64,000 nt of DNA from NCBI GenBank assembly GCA_028711165.1, contig JAQTST010000001.1, positions 149,872 through 213,871 of the forward strand. Reading direction: 5' to 3'. Positions 1,277-50,989 of the stretch are shown in pieces. Position numbers and translations under genes: made by a program. Below the pieces are notes generated by a model. It did no database searches. It saw nothing but the letters and a program-made list of their open reading frames with translations, and was not told the DNA's origin. The DNA is from Candidatus Nanoarchaeia archaeon. Lineage in GTDB: Archaea > Nanobdellota > Nanobdellia > Pacearchaeales > GW2011-AR1. The number at the start of each line of letters is the position of its first letter. Within the stretch, counting starts at the first letter, position 1.

Positions 1277-1453
1277 ATGGAAGAACAACCACAAATCAAA
1301 AATCGGGGGATGATAAAAGAAGTATGGGATTTTTTAAAAGTAAGAAAAAAATGGTGGTTGTTGCCAATAATTATTCTTCTCGTTTTGACAGGAGCTTTGG
1401 TATTCTTTAGCCAGGCAAGTTCAGTGTCTCCTTTTATTTATGCTTTGGGTTAA
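1277..1453 (+). CDS. DUF5989-like small membrane protein (58 aa, below ORF-track cutoff)
   Basis: ATG 1277, TAA 1451-1453. Translation MEEQPQIKNRGMIKEVWDFLKVRKKWWLLPIIILLVLTGALVFFSQASSVSPFIYALG. The RKKWWLLPII...PFIY pattern matches the small proteins usually encoded next to carbamoyltransferase genes. Confidence 0.55.
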   Translation: MEEQPQIKNRGMIKEVWDFLKVRKKWWLLPIIILLVLTGALVFFSQASSVSPFIYALG

Positions 1454-2253
1454 TGTTCCTTATATCTTCCTCTTTTTTCCACGGCTTTTAATCTCTCGAG
1501 AACTTTTTGTGATTCTTTATAATTTTTGTAACCTTCAATAACTTCTCTGAAAAGTATCTCCCAATTTTTGAAATGCTTTGCTTCCATCGCCTGTTTTAAC
1601 AAATGCAAATCAACTGCTTTGTCTTCAATTTTTCTCGAAATATAACCGAGGCCGAAGTCTATGAAGAAAATAATTGGCTCGCTATCGCTCGCGATTGATT
1701 GCTTCGCGCCAGACTTTGTCAAGGCGCTTCGCTGAGATTTTGTTAATCCGGATAAATCTTTGTCGCAGGGTTCAATTATTGGAATATTTTCCTTTTTAAC
1801 TTTAGATTTATCAACTAAAATCATATTGCTCGTCGTCAAATCTCCGTGAATTATATCTGCGTCGTGAAGCTTTGCAATTTCCTGTCCAATTATTTTACAG
1901 ATTTCTTTTTGTTTTTCTAATGGGAAAGAATCGAGATGCTCTGAGAGTTTTTCCCCTTCGATGAAAGGCATTATTATTCTTTCTTGCAACTTCGCTCGTT
2001 CATCCCGCCCTCCCTCCCGATGCGGAATTAATTTGTACTCGCGAAGTTGTTCTTCATTTAATGGTTTCGGAGCATTGATTATTTTTGAAGCTTTTTCAAG
2101 GAGTTTTTTTTCTGCTTTTGTTCTCTGTTTTCGGATTTTGTCGTCGAGTTCTTTTATTCTGTAAGACTTGGAAATTCTATCTTTAATAATCAAGTTATCT
2201 TTCAATTCAATAACTGCTTCTGCCCCTCTGGCAAGGATTAATTGATTTTTCAT
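1450..2253 (-). CDS. bud32: Bud32/RIO-type serine/threonine kinase (KEOPS subunit) carrying two extra segments
   Basis: Motifs LARGAEAVI, HGDLTTSNMIL and IDFGLG, with a C-terminal helical tail. Two segments are extra relative to the compact Bud32 fold: repeat A1 at 1988-2048 and a ~45-aa insert between HGDLTTSN and DFG. Confidence 0.8.
   Translation of the reverse strand: MKNQLILARGAEAVIELKDNLIIKDRISKSYRIKELDDKIRKQRTKAEKKLLEKASKIINAPKPLNEEQLREYKLIPHREGGRDERAKLQERIIMPFIEGEKLSEHLDSFPLEKQKEICKIIGQEIAKLHDADIIHGDLTTSNMILVDKSKVKKENIPIIEPCDKDLSGLTKSQRSALTKSGAKQSIASDSEPIIFFIDFGLGYISRKIEDKAVDLHLLKQAMEAKHFKNWEILFREVIEGYKNYKESQKVLERLKAVEKRGRYKEH
1988..2048 (+). repeat. family A hairpin/C-tract element, copy A1 (inside bud32 CDS)
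   Basis: AACTTCGC...GCGAAGTT 8-bp terminal inverted repeat. The core CCCGCCCTCCCTCCC (2004-2018) has four C3 runs with 1-nt spacers. Aligns with copies at 5394, 33273 and 47519. Confidence 0.8.
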
Positions 2254-5378: not shown

Positions 5379-5393
5379 TGTATTATTGTTAAG

Positions 5394-5454
5394 AATTTCG
5401 CTCGTCAATCCCGCCCTCCCCGTCCAGAGGGAATTAATTAGTACTCGCGAAATT
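5394..5454 (+). repeat. family A hairpin/C-tract element, copy A2
   Basis: AATTTCGC...GCGAAATT terminal inverted repeat, inner TCCC/GGGA stem, core CCCGCCCTCCCC. 61 bp, the same length as A1. Confidence 0.8.
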
Positions 5455-5506
5455 GGAAATTTATAGAAAAATGAGCCAAATGAGAGTTAATAAATTTGTG
5501 GTTTGA

Positions 5507-23737: not shown

Positions 23738-23786
23738 TTTCCATTAAGATAAGAATTTATAAATGTTTTTAGAAATGCGGAGTATA

Positions 23787-23865
23787 ACTCGCGACCTCGC
23801 TCATTTATCACTGATCCTCCCTTCGCGAAATCGCTCGGGATTTGCACCTCGGTTCAAATTAAGTT
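23787..23865 (-). mobile_element. family B miniature insert 3' of tRNA-Leu, flanked by a 14-bp duplication of the tRNA 3' end
   Basis: AAATGCGGAGTATA at 23773-23786 and 23866-23879 (exact). The insert, read in tRNA sense, is AACTTAATTTGAACCGAGGTGCAAATCCCGAGCGATTTCGCGAAGGGAGG...AATGAGCGAGGTCGCGAGT. It aligns with the inserts at 27928, 29199, 33443 and 50857. Confidence 0.6.
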
Positions 23866-23868
23866 AAA

Positions 23869-23952
23869 TGCGGAGTATAGGATTTGAACCTATGTAGGCA
23901 CTAAGCCATCAGCTCCTAAGGCTGACCCATTTGACCGCTCTGGCAACTCCGC
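23869..23952 (-). tRNA. tRNA-Leu(UAG)
   Basis: Acceptor GCGGAGT/ACTCCGC+A, anticodon arm TCAGC-CTTAGGA-GCTGA, long variable arm TGGCTTAGTGCCTAC, T arm ATAGG-TTCAAAT-CCTAT. Confidence 0.9.
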
Positions 23953-23953
23953 T

Positions 23954-24016
23954 TGTAAGACACCTTATCGGTTTCTTGACACTCAATTTCCCTTTGCAAT
24001 ACTGCTCAGGGCTGAT
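23954..24016 (-). repeat. family C leader module, copy C1 (between promoter and tRNA-Leu)
   Basis: TGTAAGACACCTTATCGGTTTCTTGACACTCAATTTCCCTTTGCAATACTGCTCAGGGCTGAT is nearly identical to 26582-26643. Similarity continues into the TATA region. Confidence 0.75.
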
Positions 24017-24031
24017 TCTTTCAAATAACCT

Positions 24032-26581: not shown

Positions 26582-26643
26582 TGTAAGACACCTATCGGTT
26601 TCTTGACACTCAACTTCCCTTTACAATACTGCTCAGGGCTGAT
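26582..26643 (-). repeat. family C leader module, copy C2 (5' of rps8e)
   Basis: TGTAAGACACCTATCGGTTTCTTGACACTCAACTTCCCTTTACAATACTGCTCAGGGCTGAT. Differs from C1 by a few substitutions and a 1-nt indel in a hairpin loop. Confidence 0.75.
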
Positions 26644-26654
26644 ACTCAATAATA

Positions 26655-27022: not shown

Positions 27023-27916
27023 ATGATTAAAATAACTTTTCTGGGGACTTCTGATGCTATTCCGAGCGCGGAAAGAAATCATACTTCTATTTTATTGAAT
27101 TACAAAGATGAGAATATCCTCGTCGATTGCGGGGAAGGGACGCAGAGACAATTCAGAAAGGCGAAATTAAATCCGAACAAAATTACGAGAATATTAATCA
27201 CACACTGGCACGGGGACCATGTCCTCGGGATTCCTGGGATTTTGCAGACATTAAGTTTCAGCGAATACAAAAAAACGCTTTACATTTACGGGCCAAAAGG
27301 AACAAAAGAATTCATGAGAAATCTTCTTAACACTTTCGTGTTCCATAAAAATTTTAAAATTGACGTTGAAGAAGTAGACGGCAAATTTTTTGAGACAAAT
27401 GATTTTTATCTTGAGTCTGAAAATATGAGCCATGGAATTCCATGCAATGCTTACACTTTTGTTAAAAAAGGAAATCTGCGAATTGACAAAAAGAAACTTG
27501 CGAAGATAAAAATTCACGGACCGATTTTGAAAAAACTGAAAGAAGGAAAAGACATTGTTTACGACGGGAAAAAATATTTGGCTAAGAATTTAACGTACAA
27601 AGAAATTGGGAAAAAAGTTTCTTTTGTATTCGATACCTCGTTTAATGACCGGATTGTTCCATTTGTGAAAGATTCTGATTTGCTTGTCTGCGAGTCGACT
27701 TTTGGCGTGGAACTTGAAGACAAGGCAGATGAGTTTAAGCATTTGACTTCGAAACAAACTGCAGAAATTGCGAAGAAGTCTAAATCCAAAAAACTTGTTC
27801 TTACTCACATCAGCCAGAGATACAACAAAAACCCCAAGAAAATTTTAGACGCTGCGAAGAAGGTTTTCAAGAATTCTGTTTTGGTTAAGGATTTGGACGA
27901 GATTGAAATTAAGTAA
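27023..27916 (+). CDS. rnz: ribonuclease Z (tRNA 3' endonuclease)
   Basis: Metallo-beta-lactamase motif ITHWHGDH; KITFLGTS N-terminus. Its stop codon lies inside the 22-bp direct repeat at 27906-27927. Confidence 0.9.
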   Translation: MIKITFLGTSDAIPSAERNHTSILLNYKDENILVDCGEGTQRQFRKAKLNPNKITRILITHWHGDHVLGIPGILQTLSFSEYKKTLYIYGPKGTKEFMRNLLNTFVFHKNFKIDVEEVDGKFFETNDFYLESENMSHGIPCNAYTFVKKGNLRIDKKKLAKIKIHGPILKKLKEGKDIVYDGKKYLAKNLTYKEIGKKVSFVFDTSFNDRIVPFVKDSDLLVCESTFGVELEDKADEFKHLTSKQTAEIAKKSKSKKLVLTHISQRYNKNPKKILDAAKKVFKNSVLVKDLDEIEIK

Positions 27917-27927
27917 CGCCCCGGACA

Positions 27928-28005
27928 ACTCGAGCCCTCACTCGTTGCTTTAAATTTTTTCTCGCACTCGTGAAAACTCTCTGGATTTGCACCTCGGTTC
28001 AAATC
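27928..28005 (-). mobile_element. family B miniature insert between rnz and tRNA-Arg(UCU), flanked by a 22-bp duplication
   Basis: AAATTAAGTAACGCCCCGGACA at 27906-27927 and 28006-28027 (exact, 100 bp apart). The insert in tRNA sense is GATTTGAACCGAGGTGCAAATCCAGAGAGTTTTCACGAGTGCGAG...AACGAGTGAGGGCTCGAGT. Confidence 0.6.
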
Positions 28006-28016
28006 AAATTAAGTAA

Positions 28017-28091
28017 CGCCCCGGACAGGATTTGAACCTGCGACCCTTAGCTTAGAAGGCTAATGCTCTATCCAGGCTGAGCTACCAGGGC
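28017..28091 (-). tRNA. tRNA-Arg(UCU)
   Basis: Acceptor GCCCTGG/CCGGGGC+G, D arm GCTC-AGCCTGGATA-GAGC, anticodon arm TTAGC-CTTCTAA-GCTAA, T arm GCAGG-TTCAAAT-CCTGT. Confidence 0.9.
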
Positions 28092-28144
28092 ATACTATTA
28101 ATTTGTTTGAGAACCTTTAAAAGTTTTGCATTCTATAAACTCGC

Positions 28145-28984: not shown

Positions 28985-29102
28985 TTTTATATATCGTGCC
29001 TCTGTGCAATTATGATTAACTTTAAAAGTTTTGAATTTCTTTCTTTTCTATGCGGACTCAGAAAATCTCTGCGAGATTCTGGTCACGCACTCACATGTTC
29101 GC

Positions 29103-29197
29103 GCGCGGGTGGCACAGCGGCTACTGCGTCTCCCTGCAGATTATAAATTAAATAATCGGAAAGGAGATTTTCACGGGTTCGAGTCCCGTCCCGCGCT
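29103..29197 (+). tRNA. tRNA-Cys(GCA) with a 22-nt intron at 37/38
   Basis: Acceptor GCGCGGG/CCCGCGC+T. Anticodon stem TCTCC...GGAGA with loop CTGCAG|A. Intron about 29140-29161 (ATTATAAATTAAATAATCGGAA). T arm ACGGG-TTCGAGT-CCCGT. Confidence 0.85.
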
Positions 29198-29198
29198 T

Positions 29199-29288
29199 AT
29201 TTTATAAAAGGACGAGAACCCTGGGTTCGACGAGCGATTTCACAAGTGCCGGAAAAATTTTGAATGCAACGAGTGGGGTCGGGAGCTT
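29199..29288 (+). mobile_element. family B miniature insert 3' of tRNA-Cys, flanked by a 15-bp duplication
   Basis: TCCCGTCCCGCGCTT at 29184-29198 and 29289-29303 (exact). The insert contains GAACCCTGGGTTCGACGAGCGATTTCACAAGTGCCGG...AACGAGTGGGGTCGGGAGCTT and is colinear with the other B copies in tRNA sense. Confidence 0.6.
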
Positions 29289-29347
29289 TCCCGTCCCGCG
29301 CTTTACTCTGTAAAAATATTTATAAATTGTAGTGCCTAAGTTATGTA

Positions 29348-33341: not shown

Positions 33342-33442
33342 ATGGCTCTGGTCCTCGCTTCGCTGCGGGCGAGCCATCTCAATCCTTCAATGGCTCTGGG
33401 CTAAAATTTAGGAAAAATTTTGCCACATAGCCTATGGCTCTG
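33342..33442 (-). repeat. three extra copies of the tRNA-Met 3' terminal nonamer, each preceded (tRNA sense) by a 5-bp hairpin
   Basis: ATGGCTCTG at 33342-33350, 33390-33398 and 33434-33442, plus 33543-33551 in the tRNA itself. Hairpins in tRNA sense are CTCGC-(10 nt)-GCGAG, GGCTA-(24 nt)-TAGCC and GGGAG-GTCAGCA-CTCCC. Confidence 0.7.
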
Positions 33443-33542
33443 GGGAGTGCTGACCTCCCTAACTCGCGACCTCCCTCATTCAACACTGACCCTACTTTCG
33501 TGAAATCGCTCGCCTCTGCCTACATCAAAGCTTGTTTAATTT
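33443..33542 (-). mobile_element. family B miniature insert 3' of tRNA-Met/Ile(CAU)
   Basis: Between nonamer copies at 33434-33442 and 33543-33551. Contains CGAGCGATTTCACGAAAGTAGGGTCAGTG...AATGAGGGAGGTCGCGAGTT (tRNA sense), colinear with the Leu copy. Confidence 0.6.
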
Positions 33543-33543
33543 A

Positions 33544-33615
33544 TGGCTCTGAAGAGAATTTAACTCTCGACCTCTGCCTTATGAGAGCAGCGCTCTAACA
33601 CTGAGCTACAGAGCC
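33544..33615 (-). tRNA. tRNA with CAU anticodon (elongator Met or Ile2)
   Basis: Acceptor GGCTCTG/CAGAGCC+A (G1-C72, so not an initiator). Anticodon arm CTGCT-CTCATAA-GGCAG. T arm GAGAG-TTAAATT-CTCTT. Confidence 0.85.
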
Positions 33616-33618
33616 TTT

Positions 33619-33691
33619 CTGTTTTATGATTCTGTAGCGAACTAATGCCTTTTAGCAAGGGGTTAGTGTAAGGGGATGTGCCCCTCATGAA
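33619..33691 (-). repeat. 73-bp insert 5' of tRNA-Met, flanked by a 13-bp duplication of the tRNA 5' end
   Basis: CTACAGAGCCTTT at 33606-33618 and 33692-33704 (exact). The insert contains the hairpin GGGG-CACAT-CCCC. Confidence 0.6.
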
Positions 33692-33760
33692 CTACAGAGC
33701 CTTTATAATTAGCAAAAGAAAAAGATAATTTAAAAGTCTTCTTATAGAATAAAAACCAGA

Positions 33761-35054: not shown

Positions 35055-35210
35055 ATGGATTCCCTTTTAGATATTCTTTTGGACTTTGTTTTGCGTATGT
35101 CTATAATAAGGGGGAGCAAAAAATGGGAATTTTTTTGGGGTTCACTGTTATTAATTATTATATTGGCAATTGTATTCTTTATCATTCTTAAAATCTTTAA
35201 AATTGTCTAA
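35055..35210 (+). CDS. possible small membrane protein (51 aa)
   Basis: MDSLLDILLDFVLRMSIIRGSKKWEFFWGSLLLIIILAIVFFIILKIFKIV. Support is weak. Confidence 0.25.
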   Translation: MDSLLDILLDFVLRMSIIRGSKKWEFFWGSLLLIIILAIVFFIILKIFKIV

Positions 35211-35725
35211 GGCTTAATCCATCTTACTTCATAATAACTTATGTCGCCTTCTTCATCGACGATTGCGAGAAGCAGATTCTTTTTTGTTGAATGGGCTACT
35301 CTGTTTTTTGCTGAAAATTCATGCCATGTAAATCTTTTTGATTCATGTTCAGCGAAGACAATCCACTTTGCATGCGATACACCCGGCTTACTTCCTTTGG
35401 CGTAAACTCTAAAATCCGCGCCGAATTTCAGTGCAGTTTTAACTACATAACCTCTTTCTCTCAAATCCTTGAACACCAAATATTTTATCTGAATCTTTTT
35501 GTCAACTCTTCTGCATTTTTCTATAAATTCTTTTTTTGAAAGTTTCTTGTCTCTGGAAAATATATCAATTTTTCCTTTTTCCAAAAGAAATAATGCTTCT
35601 GTCAGGGAATATTGTATCTTGTCATCTTTGGGTTCCCCGAAATGACTTTTCTCGTAAAGAGAGAACGCGTCTGCGTCGATGCTTGAAATTATTTCTCCCA
35701 TAATATATGCTTTTATTTTTTCCAT
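35207..35725 (-). CDS. endA: tRNA-splicing endonuclease EndA
   Basis: Catalytic domain pattern RGYVVKTALKFGADFRVYAKG...HAKWIV. Confidence 0.9.
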   Translation of the reverse strand: MEKIKAYIMGEIISSIDADAFSLYEKSHFGEPKDDKIQYSLTEALFLLEKGKIDIFSRDKKLSKKEFIEKCRRVDKKIQIKYLVFKDLRERGYVVKTALKFGADFRVYAKGSKPGVSHAKWIVFAEHESKRFTWHEFSAKNRVAHSTKKNLLLAIVDEEGDISYYEVRWIKP

Positions 35726-41811: not shown

Positions 41812-42198
41812 TCAAGCTCCTTCAATTGCTTTCAATTTATCCTGAATGCTCATTAATTCATTTTCGAGTTTTTCATCAAAATCCTTTTTTATTGCCGGCG
41901 GAGATATCTTTTTTATTTCTCCGACTGCTGTCCTTTCAGGAATCTTAAAAAATGGAAAATAATTTTTTGTTTTTTTCAGGGCAGCGTTGAGTTCTCTTAT
42001 TGTCTGATATATTTTGCTTCTTATCTCGAACTCTTCTGCCCGAAGAGAATTATATTTCCTTGCTATTTTTATTATGTTAAGAAAAGACATTTCAGAAGAA
42101 AGCAAATCTTTTTTTGCATCAACAGATTCGTAATAACCCAACCTGAAATAAACCGGATTATTATTTTCTACCTTCGGAAGACTTTTTTTAGTTTTCAT
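41812..42198 (-). CDS. hypothetical protein, translationally coupled to 42195-42878
   Basis: 4-nt overlap with the upstream ORF; helical protein. Confidence 0.5.
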   Translation of the reverse strand: MKTKKSLPKVENNNPVYFRLGYYESVDAKKDLLSSEMSFLNIIKIARKYNSLRAEEFEIRSKIYQTIRELNAALKKTKNYFPFFKIPERTAVGEIKKISPPAIKKDFDEKLENELMSIQDKLKAIEGA

Positions 42199-42878
42199 TC
42201 TACCTGCGAGAAAATGTTGCTATCTATTTTTTCAATTTTTTCTTTAATCTGTTTAATCTCACTTTCCCATAACGCTAATTCTTGCTCTTCTTTTTCTCTG
42301 ACTTTTTTTACATCTTCAACCATATTTTCTATTTCTGAAATTTTTCTTCTTACTTCTTCAAAAGTTCTTGAACCCTCTTCAAATTTATCTATTCGGATAA
42401 AAATTGGCTCCTGACCTCTACTCGAGCTCCCACTCATTGCATTAAATTTTTCCGGCATTCGTGAAAACTCTCGCTCATTGCTATCAAATCTTTTTCTGGC
42501 ATTCGCGAAATCACTCGGTTCTGCTTCTCTTGTTCTTGTCCTCTGCAATGGAGCGGAAAAATCTCTTTTTGTTCCTTCTATTCTAAGAGGTCTCTGCATC
42601 ATCGGCAGTTCTTCTGAAAATACCTCTGCTTCAACCCCGACCCCTTTCTTCCCAGCAATTGCTTCTTTGATTGTATCCTGTGAGAATTTATTTCCTAAAC
42701 TTCCATTCGGAAAGCTTGGTAATTGCGGAAGCTGTTCAGGCATCTCTGGCATTTCTTTTACAAAATCTTTTTCTCCTATTCCGGGAAATTCCGGCAATTG
42801 CGGAAGCTGTGGAATTTCAGGAAGTTTTGGAATGTCTGAATTCTCCCCTTTTTTTTCTTTTTTCTTAAATAAAGCCAT
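42195..42878 (-). CDS. hypothetical protein with LP-rich N-terminus and C-terminal coiled coil
   Basis: IPKLPEIPQLPQLPEFPG repeats; C-terminal EPIFIRIDKFEEG...coiled coil. Contains two copies of the family-B core motif (42454-42480 and 42498-42523). Confidence 0.55.
   Translation of the reverse strand: MALFKKKEKKGENSDIPKLPEIPQLPQLPEFPGIGEKDFVKEMPEMPEQLPQLPSFPNGSLGNKFSQDTIKEAIAGKKGVGVEAEVFSEELPMMQRPLRIEGTKRDFSAPLQRTRTREAEPSDFANARKRFDSNEREFSRMPEKFNAMSGSSSRGQEPIFIRIDKFEEGSRTFEEVRRKISEIENMVEDVKKVREKEEQELALWESEIKQIKEKIEKIDSNIFSQVE
42454..42523 (+). repeat. two copies of the family-B core motif inside a CDS
   Basis: GGCATTCGTGAAAACTCTCGCTC and GGCATTCGCGAAATCACTCGGTT, 44 bp apart, so the host ORF reads them in different frames. 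Confidence 0.55.
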
Positions 42879-50714: not shown

Positions 50715-50855
50715 GGGCTTATAGTTTAACGGATAGAACAACCGGCTTCGGACTGGGTTTCTTTCTTTAGAAAAGAAAGAAACTACACTGGTAGAAAGAA
50801 ACTACAATTCCGAGGAAGAAACCGGTTAATCGGGGTTCAATTCCTCGTAAGCCCA
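50715..50855 (+). tRNA. tRNA-Arg(UCG) with a ~69-nt intron at 37/38
   Basis: Acceptor GGGCTTA/TAAGCCC+A. Anticodon stem ACCGG (50741-50745) / CCGGT (50822-50826), loop CTTCGG|A. Intron about 50752-50820. T arm CGGGG-TTCAATT-CCTCG. Confidence 0.8.
50755..50811 (+). repeat. family D hairpin element, copy D1 (fills the tRNA-Arg intron)
   Basis: GGGTTTCTTTCTTTAGAAAAGAAAGAAACTACACTGGTAGAAAGAAACTACAATTCC. 11-bp stem GTTTCTTTCTT/AAGAAAGAAAC, then CTAC-ACTG-GTAG. Confidence 0.75.
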
Positions 50856-50856
50856 T

Positions 50857-50924
50857 ATTATTTTGAATTGAACCCTTGGGTTTCATTTGTTTGTAAAACG
50901 AATGAGGCTGAACGAAGTGACGCC
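50857..50924 (+). mobile_element. family B-like miniature insert 3' of tRNA-Arg(UCG), flanked by a 19-bp duplication
   Basis: CAATTCCTCGTAAGCCCAT at 50838-50856 and 50925-50943 (exact). The insert ATTATTTTGAATTGAACCCTTGGGTTTCA...AATGAGGCTGAACGAAGTGACGCC shares the proximal TTGAACC..GGGTT and AATGAGG blocks with other copies. It is the most diverged copy. Confidence 0.5.
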
Positions 50925-50989
50925 CAATTCCTCGTAAGCCCATGCGCGTTTTACATAAATCTTTAAAAAATATTTTTCTATCTTATTAT

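Follow-up and report, generated by a model that had tools for sequence, protein, structure and literature searches.

The attachment (att) sites of archaeal integrases comprise the 3′ end of a tRNA gene, with various 5′ limits, lengths from 13 bp to more than 100 bp and sometimes an extension beyond the gene; pTN3-like integrases use the tRNA's 5′ half (PMC8371274). Fragments of tRNA 3′ ends are well known as att scars of kilobase-scale elements (PMC9897764, PMC8371274). The casposase of Aciduliprofundum boonei targets a leader-like segment in the TΨC loop of a tRNA gene together with a neighbouring stretch of 15 bp, which overlaps the tRNA 3′ end and becomes duplicated; it integrates in one direction, and tandem insertions are predicted on the side nearer the tRNA (PMC5137440). 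Here we describe a locus in a 64,000-nt stretch of the genome of a Candidatus Nanoarchaeia archaeon of the Pacearchaeales (GCA_028711165.1, contig JAQTST010000001.1, positions 149,872 to 213,871; the whole stretch is referred to as the window), in which a 78-bp insert flanked by an exact 22-bp repeat lies between the convergent genes for RNase Z (rnz) and tRNA-Arg(UCU). This insert is one case of a clade-wide habit in which small hairpin elements land at tRNA ends and duplicate them, and on the best reading the process resembles integrase att sites or the T-loop-guided integration of casposases more than that of an ordinary miniature inverted-repeat transposable element (MITE).

MITEs, repetitive extragenic palindromic (REP) and REPIN sequences and the Rickettsia palindromic elements are short, abundant, non-coding hairpins with a conserved stem, located between genes or occasionally in frame within them, and the inserts described here are like them in these respects. 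MITEs have a target-site duplication (TSD) of fixed length at every site and REPs have none; neither is known to carry a mimic of the tRNA T arm or to duplicate tRNA termini. The insertion of yeast Ty3 and of Dictyostelium TRE5 and TRE3 is pinned to the transcription start or the downstream end of tRNA genes, which stay functional in these compact genomes. All are autonomous retrotransposons that are directed to the RNA polymerase III machinery and leave a short TSD of fixed length. The archaeal inserts are similarly pinned to tRNA gene ends in a compact genome with the tRNA kept functional, but show neither a reverse transcriptase nor a poly-A-like tail. One genome of the Pacearchaeales is reported to encode a RAYT, a transposase of the Y1 HUH type (preprint 10.64898/2026.05.13.725050).

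The 22-mer AAATTAAGTAACGCCCCGGACA is present exactly twice on the + strand of the window (22/22 identity; Table 1), the starts of the two copies are 100 bp apart, and the enclosed insert occupies 27928–28005. There is no third copy in the window with up to three mismatches allowed, and dinucleotide shuffles gave no match (0/100), so the repeat stands as the earlier note on this DNA had described it. That note also assigned one copy to each flanking gene, and both assignments are correct. The rnz reading frame (27008/27023–27916) ends in EIK followed by TAA at 27914–27916, such that its last three codons and stop codon fall within the distal repeat copy, which reads TGTCCGGGGCG+TTACTTAATTT in the tRNA sense. 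The product is RNase Z by TIGR02651 (332 bits against a cutoff of 293), and an exact-protein look-up matched the protein that starts with the ATG at 27023, with no match for the version from the TTG start. The proximal copy supplies the 3′ end of tRNA-Arg(UCU), which ARAGORN places at 28016–28092 on the minus strand, convergent with rnz. The window is identical to GCA_028714745.1 contig JAQTLT010000001.1, and an assembly artefact is ruled out, as the insert and both repeat copies recur in two Logan assemblies made independently from other runs (SRR22315508, SRR22315506).

Rfam detects seven tRNAs in the window, two of which contain introns and are overlooked by default ARAGORN. At five of the seven, a 70–100-nt insert lies downstream of the tRNA and is followed by an exact second copy of the tRNA's own 3′ end, with repeats of 14 nt at tRNA-Leu, 22 nt at tRNA-Arg, 15 nt at tRNA-Cys, 10 nt at tRNA-Met and 19 nt at the intron-containing tRNA at 50715. 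The insert at the last of these (tRNA 50715–50855) is different from the others and starts with an inverted copy of that tRNA's T-loop variant. Downstream of tRNA-Met there is an array of three successive copies of CAGAGCCAT with separations of 109, 44 and 48 nt. The first of these copies comes after a hairpin core of the family described below (family B) and a T arm from another allele: this distal fragment, GGGAGGTCAGCACTCCCCAGAGCCA, is exactly the T arm plus acceptor of the tRNA-Met allele of two related loci (L052 and L067), whose T arm is unusual (loop GUCAGCA), and the adjacent working gene in the window has a different T arm. Simple copying of the neighbouring gene therefore cannot explain this fragment. 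The 5′ end of tRNA-Met is also duplicated, over 13 nt (33606–33618 and 33692–33704, 86 nt apart), with a 73-nt insert between the promoter and the gene and the upstream copy at the normal distance from the TATA box.

Table 1. Coordinates of the repeat, insert and gene features at the rnz/tRNA-Arg(UCU) locus and of the related arrangements at other tRNAs of the window
Feature	Coordinates	Strand	Content or evidence
RNase Z gene (rnz)	27023..27916	+	ORF; NCBIfam TIGR02651; exact-protein look-up
Distal repeat copy (copy 1 of the earlier note)	27906..27927	-	Pseudo tRNA-Arg 3′ end and rnz stop region
Family-B core hairpin, diverged copy	27928..27982	-	AGAGAGTTTTCACGAG...AACGAGTGAGGGCTCGAGT in tRNA sense; alignments of window copies and of 65 sequences
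T-loop mimic X″	27983..27993	-	GGTGCAAATCC in tRNA sense
Inverted T-loop copy X′	27996..28005	-	GATTTGAACC in tRNA sense
Proximal repeat copy (copy 2 of the earlier note)	28006..28027	-	Last 11-12 nt of tRNA-Arg and 10-11 nt of trailer
tRNA-Arg(UCU), intact, no encoded CCA	28017..28091	-	Rfam, 67 bits
tRNA-Leu(UAG) architecture	23773..23879	-	Repeats 23773-23786 and 23866-23879; family-B insert
tRNA-Cys(GCA) architecture	29184..29303	+	Repeats 29184-29198 and 29289-29303; intron-containing tRNA 29103-29197
tRNA-Met(CAU) locus	33342..33704	-	tRNA 33544-33615; extra 3′-end copies 33433-33442, 33390-33398 and 33342-33350
Intron-containing tRNA (50715-50855) architecture	50838..50943	+	Repeats 50838-50856 and 50925-50943

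The inserts at tRNA-Leu, tRNA-Arg, tRNA-Cys and tRNA-Met have a common core (family B), with a left box CGAGCGATTTCRCGAA and a right box AAYGAGYGAGGTCGCGAGT in the tRNA sense, always in the orientation of the tRNA. An alignment of 65 sequences shows a 10-bp basal stem in which GCGAUUUCRY pairs with RYGAGGUCGC, containing two invariant U·G pairs that can form on the tRNA-sense strand alone. One further pair covaries (G-C in 43 sequences, A-U in 20). Cores situated downstream of tRNAs are in the tRNA's orientation in 28 cases and opposite in two (p = 9e-7).

In tRNA-adjacent copies the core is preceded by a second hairpin, H1, formed by X′ and then X″. At tRNA-Arg, 11 of 12 positions agree between X″ and the T-loop region of the tRNA, the distal repeat carries on from X″ in register, and X′ is also complementary to the tRNA's own T-loop. 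What is duplicated at tRNA-Arg is thus really about 33 nt long, GGT(T/G)CAAATCC (GGTKCAAATCC) and the 22-mer, and the distal copy holds the core within it, after AATCC. The same relationship is general: over 29 copies from 13 isotypes, the 12-nt stretch ahead of the core agrees with the local T-loop at 8 or more positions in 27 and at 9 or more in 16 (shuffles have a mean of 6.1 and reach at least 9 in 0.8%). The distal repeat resumes 0–5 nt beyond the mimic match in 26 of the 29, and its start tracks the type of mimic, with a median of −14 for GGTTCGA and −11 for CAAATCC (p = 9e-4). The H1 module at tRNA-Leu is identical to that at tRNA-Arg, including the T-to-G mismatch and the preceding ACTTAATTTGA, although the cores at the two sites belong to different subfamilies; H1 is therefore borne by the element and not generated locally. 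Nine bases of the 'rnz' part of the 22-mer (ACTTAATTT in the tRNA sense) also open the tRNA-Leu insert proximally, where there is no rnz.

The 78-bp insert as a whole has no terminal inverted repeats (TIRs); its ends are GATTTGAACC... and ...GGGCTCGAGT, and the inverted pair X′/X″ is internal. No Rfam family matches it at gathering or relaxed thresholds. Inspection showed no C (RUGAUGA) or D (CUGA) boxes of a C/D-box small RNA and no bulge-helix-bulge geometry of an archaeal intron at the insert boundaries, where the central helix would need a self-complementary sequence, which is absent, because the intron start would equal the start of the 3′ exon (both are the repeat).

For comparison, 80 loci (L001–L080) were retrieved with the RNase Z protein from metagenome-assembled genomes of Pacearchaeota, Woesearchaeota and Nanoarchaeota. 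The rnz gene is linked to tRNA-Arg(UCU) in most of them, with varying orientation of the tRNA: it is convergent with rnz in L001, L004, L005, L007, L042, L047 and L066 and co-directional in most others, and the orientation switches even among close relatives although the tRNA stays next to rnz throughout the clade. These flips suggest repeated local inversion of the tRNA-Arg gene.

The closest relative is L001, in which RNase Z is 86% identical. At the neighbouring tRNA-Leu and tRNA-Cys its sites are cleanly empty: the flanks are collinear, and the repeat is there once, leading straight into the promoter sequence that adjoins the second copy in the window. Because these sites are empty in L001, the tRNA-Leu and tRNA-Cys cases are true insertions with duplication of the tRNA end, and the earlier view that the duplication surrounds a real insertion and leaves rnz and the tRNA intact is upheld. 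At tRNA-Arg the comparison is less simple. Without the insert and with one repeat copy the junction would read ...AAATTAAGTAACGCCCCGGACAGG..., with the rnz stop codon abutting the tRNA, and the earlier note took this as the ancestral arrangement, naming a non-abutting junction in an insert-free relative as the observation that would speak against it. L001 has such a junction, in that its rnz ends in the same way (GAAATTAAGTAA) and the spacer to tRNA-Arg is 21–22 nt. More distant relatives have a convergent tRNA-Arg 1–2 nt (L004, L047, L042) or 5–8 nt (L005, L066, L007) from the rnz stop codon, and because of these an abutting ancestral junction is plausible; we infer one of zero length for this lineage, with the L001 spacer as the dissenting observation. 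The 21-nt spacer of L001 was also considered as an element remnant, and its best ungapped match (11/20) is not significant.

The link of the insert to RNase Z, which the earlier note had allowed might be chance, is coincidental, because the same architecture occurs at tRNA-Leu, tRNA-Cys, tRNA-Met and another tRNA of the window and because the adjacency of rnz and tRNA-Arg(UCU) is an old, clade-wide synteny; the element targets the tRNA. The survival of both genes would be a by-product and not a rescue device: rnz would have converged on the tRNA with essentially no spacer, for which reason the duplicated block spans both gene ends and both genes survive.

Duplicated tRNA ends are common in this clade. 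Among 168 tRNAs at the rnz loci, 27 are followed within 330 nt by a second copy of 11 nt or more of their 3′ end; the upstream control gives 4 of 168. In a pooled set of all low-GC loci from related Pacearchaeota and Woesearchaeota, comprising 205 non-redundant tRNAs, 32 (16%) have a 3′ repeat of 12 nt or more that straddles the tRNA end; in 27 of these its outer edge is 0 to +4 nt beyond the tRNA, and the inner edge varies between −8 and −20. The mirror-image 5′ repeat is present in 15 of 205, and in 13 of those the outer edge falls between −6 and 0. The window's tRNA-Arg repeat, with an outer edge at +10/+11, is an outlier because it runs into rnz. Insert sizes are 24–143 nt, repeat lengths vary (10–23 nt and more), and several families of insert behave alike. 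One further family (family C), observed at tRNA ends in L006, L031, L052, L059 and L067, has the form CTCACC...GGTTTCCC..GGGATGAC...AGGCC; its end is a copy of the 5′ strand of the local T-stem with the first two Ts of the T-loop changed to CC(G), in at least four independent cases.

A search for kilobase-scale autonomous relatives yielded only a 1.25-kb insert at a tRNA-Leu (locus L049, 314–1673), with 22 nt of the tRNA 3′ end repeated on either side. Its two ORFs code for proteins of 293 aa and 113 aa without Pfam hits, the larger with a nucleotidyltransferase-like G[S]...DxD motif, and the insert has no recombinase. A second candidate, in L022, proved to be a 1.1-kb tandem duplication and not an insertion.

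Family-B cores are also found away from tRNAs. With the core pattern, more than 120 hits were obtained in metagenomes, and only about 15% of core copies follow a tRNA; in these the repeat is almost always present. Overall, 43 of 65 cores, mostly non-tRNA, are without a flanking repeat of at least 7 nt. The non-tRNA cores are mostly intergenic or near gene starts, and an in-frame role within genes was rejected, with only 4 of 46 spanned by long open frames. As an abundant imperfect palindrome with a conserved stem and a mainly intergenic location, the core has the properties by which REP-like sequences are recognised. The pattern has no hits (0) in IMG/VR viral contigs, on which a viral origin was ruled out. 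Head-to-tail arrays of cores occur at L084:2932–3079 (three copies, 48-nt period) and as two copies in L088, L089, L119 and L152. In the window, two overlapping tandem family-B cores lie at 42395–42530, with no tRNA nearby, within a 227-aa ORF (42195–42878, minus strand) that has no Pfam hit; downstream of them is AGAGGTCAGGAGCCA, which looks like an orphan tRNA 3′ end.

These insertions duplicate tRNA ends, are specific to them, are locked in orientation and carry T-arm mimics in register with the repeat. We attribute them, with a probability of roughly 0.68, to integration of a non-autonomous mini-element by a tRNA-end-specific enzyme that would act in trans and recognise the T arm of the target. 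A 78-bp non-coding element would have entered the chromosome at the 3′ end of tRNA-Arg(UCU), and the 22-bp repeat would be the duplication of the integration site. The element probably consists of two modules, the T-arm-mimic hairpin H1 and the conserved family-B core hairpin, and would be one of several small families, widespread in Pacearchaeota and Woesearchaeota, that land one way round at tRNA gene ends. Integration would duplicate the terminal 10–25 nt of the tRNA plus 0–4 nt of flank (10–11 nt at tRNA-Arg). The probability covers this general statement and is the sum of those for two submechanisms.

The first, an att-type event, is the likeliest single mechanism, though tentatively so and at less than even odds. 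The element's own copy of a tRNA 3′ end would recombine with the chromosomal copy, such that the tRNA-proximal copy would be element-borne and the distal copy with the rnz stop codon would be the original. As at the att sites of tyrosine recombinases (SSV, pTN3, pT26-2, SNJ2), the repeats consist of a tRNA 3′ end whose 5′ limit varies (13–14 bp at the shortest), and the intact tRNA lies beside the insert with the partial copy displaced distally; the use of the 5′ half by pTN3-like integrases is the mirror image, as in the 5′ repeats here, and tandem arrays like that at tRNA-Met are known for tyrosine-recombinase elements at hot tRNAs (PMC8371274; PMC9897764). Element-side homology to the tRNA extends beyond the repeat, in the in-register mimic and in the foreign T arm at tRNA-Met, with mimic and repeat separated by the core. 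An att-type event is favoured over a generic TSD because non-tRNA cores mostly lack flanking repeats, because H1 is identical, mismatch included, at tRNA-Arg and tRNA-Leu, because the distal fragment at tRNA-Met has the L052/L067 T arm, because the gene-carrying 1.25-kb insert has the same kind of repeat and because the boundary statistics match published archaeal att sites (PMC8371274). Tyrosine-recombinase elements differ in being 9–23 kb or larger with their own integrase, whereas these inserts are of 24–140 bp, with one of 1.25 kb, and have no recombinase; unlike them, the inserts also have hairpin modules common to 13 tRNA isotypes and affect 16% of tRNAs.

The second submechanism, a staggered-cut integration guided by the T-loop in the manner of a casposase or Cas1, with both copies derived from the target, is somewhat less probable. 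As with the casposon, the T loop or the position right behind it marks the start of the duplicated block, as for a Cas1-type target, and there is an array at tRNA-Met. The casposon TSD differs in being fixed at 14–15 bp and overlapping the tRNA by only 5 bp, where the repeats here are 10–23 nt or more, and casposons are large, with TIRs and genes for Cas1 and PolB, whereas the inserts are small and lack TIRs; neither Cas1 nor PolB is found among the ~40 ORFs of the window.

Several observations weigh against this integration reading as a whole. The abutting empty site predicted at tRNA-Arg is missing from the closest relative. The 78-bp insert has no integrase gene, and no integrase, transposase, Cas1 or reverse transcriptase is present among the ~40 window ORFs or in the L049 insert, nor does the family-B pattern occur in viral contigs. 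Inserts of 24–140 bp are far below the size of any known integrative element. An att-type event needs a specific tRNA end for each element copy, yet related modules are present at 13 isotypes, and at tRNA-Arg the element would have carried 11 nt of rnz; on the casposase side, repeat lengths of 10–23 nt and more vary beyond the 14–15 bp of that enzyme. No free or circular form and no empty allele within the population has been seen, circles being detectable only in read-level data.

An integration system of Pacearchaeota and Woesearchaeota that has not been described before is conceivable but unlikely. In it, hairpin mini-elements with a T-arm mimic would enter tRNA 3′ ends at their border nearest the T-loop (with a counterpart at 5′ ends) by a process akin to that of casposases and CRISPR adaptation or by mobilisation of RNase Z trailers. 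The newest insertion would lie nearest the gene, and each would duplicate the tRNA terminus and could build arrays such as that at tRNA-Met; the system would apply a 'leader plus repeat' logic to tRNA genes or mobilise the trailers released by RNase Z. The literature searched holds no description of 24–140-bp T-arm-mimic hairpin elements that duplicate tRNA ends in DPANN archaea at such frequency.

Ordinary MITE transposition, with a staggered cut by a transposase and a fill-in TSD wherever the element lands, tRNA ends being the only sites tolerated in a compact genome, is improbable; it corresponds to the simple target duplication of the earlier note. The exact flanking repeats, the clean filled and empty sites with a single repeat copy, the similar behaviour of several insert families and the array at tRNA-Met, as from repeated insertions at one tRNA, are all in keeping with it. 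However, the repeat length is not constant (10–23 nt and more), the whole insert has no TIRs, non-tRNA family-B cores mostly lack a flanking repeat, and insertion points cluster 0–4 nt from the tRNA end and are not spread over the flank. The strictly locked orientation, the T-loop mimic in register with the distal repeat and the tRNA-Met distal fragment from another allele also speak against it. A simple target duplication, as the note proposed, does not account for the ~33-nt duplication with its nested core, the repeat-free cores or the foreign allele at tRNA-Met.

Slightly less probable still is an event at tRNA genes by template switching, fold-back repair or an RNA-mediated route. Where forks stall or breaks arise at the ends of highly transcribed tRNA units, the gene's own hairpin arms and other loci would be copied in the repair, or the tRNA 3′ trailers released by RNase Z would be reverse-transcribed and re-inserted; both variants predict duplications bounded by transcript ends and inverted copies of the adjacent arm. 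The outer repeat edges do coincide with the expected terminator T-run and transcription start, and the upstream 5′ copies are found ~25 nt downstream of TATA boxes. The inserts also contain the neighbouring T-loop (3′ side) or acceptor/D-stem segment (5′ side) in inverted form, each matched to the local variant, the structure is mosaic, with the same H1 and different cores at tRNA-Arg and tRNA-Leu, and the tRNA-Leu insert starts with the tRNA-Arg trailer just past the RNase Z cleavage site (ACTTAATTT). Yet the unit of H1 plus core keeps one geometry at 13 isotypes and in many genomes, a regularity beyond what repair accidents would give, the core sequence is conserved across genera like a protein-recognised element, and no reverse transcriptase is seen among the ~40 window ORFs.

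That the second copy was kept as useful, for regulating tRNA 3′ processing or termination through the trailer hairpins and a decoy acceptor strand or as a terminator or 3′ untranslated region of rnz, is very unlikely: the U·G pairs confined to the tRNA-sense strand and the covarying pair suggest a transcribed RNA hairpin, the orientation lock fits co-transcription and X′ is able to pair with the tRNA's own T-loop, but close relatives lack the insert at orthologous tRNAs, older distal copies decay by point mutation (L026, L037, L098, L142), the tRNA-Arg unit shows no exceptional RNA stability (fold energy z = −1.3) and no Rfam family matches.

Other features of the window concern tRNA genes and short repeats. 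The introns of the tRNAs at 29103–29197 and 50715–50855 are ~22 and ~69 nt, and the tRNA-splicing endonuclease EndA is encoded at 35207–35725. Between a TATA-like box (CTTTAAAAG, ~29022) and the mature 5′ end of tRNA-Cys (29022–29102) there appears to be a 5′ leader of ~55 nt, which is unusual should the lineage favour leaderless transcription of tRNAs. A repeat of 54 nt (94% identical) is present at 23966–24019, between a putative promoter and the 5′ end of tRNA-Leu, and at 26593–26646, upstream of the ribosomal protein S8e gene; its copy at tRNA-Leu would give a leader of ~85 nt. A separate repeat of ~75 nt (family A), with terminal inverted repeats CAACTTCGC/GCGAAGTTG, has copies at 1975–2049 and 5381–5455, one of them in frame (25 codons) in a RIO/Bud32-like kinase ORF (1450–2253, minus strand) and the other between the TATA box and the start codon of SRP54; it recalls the Rickettsia palindromic elements.

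If the pattern holds genome-wide, about one in six tRNA genes of these ultra-small archaeal genomes would be a scar or an active site of tRNA-end-specific integration with elements of less than 150 bp. This would offer a tractable natural system for how integrases, whether tyrosine, Cas1-like or new, read the T arm of a tRNA gene, and would explain many of the partial tRNA hits and contig breaks in DPANN assemblies. For annotation, tRNA 3′ fragments beside intact tRNAs need not mark kilobase-scale proviruses. The pattern also bears on the origin at tRNA genes of the directional leader-repeat integration of CRISPR adaptation and casposons.

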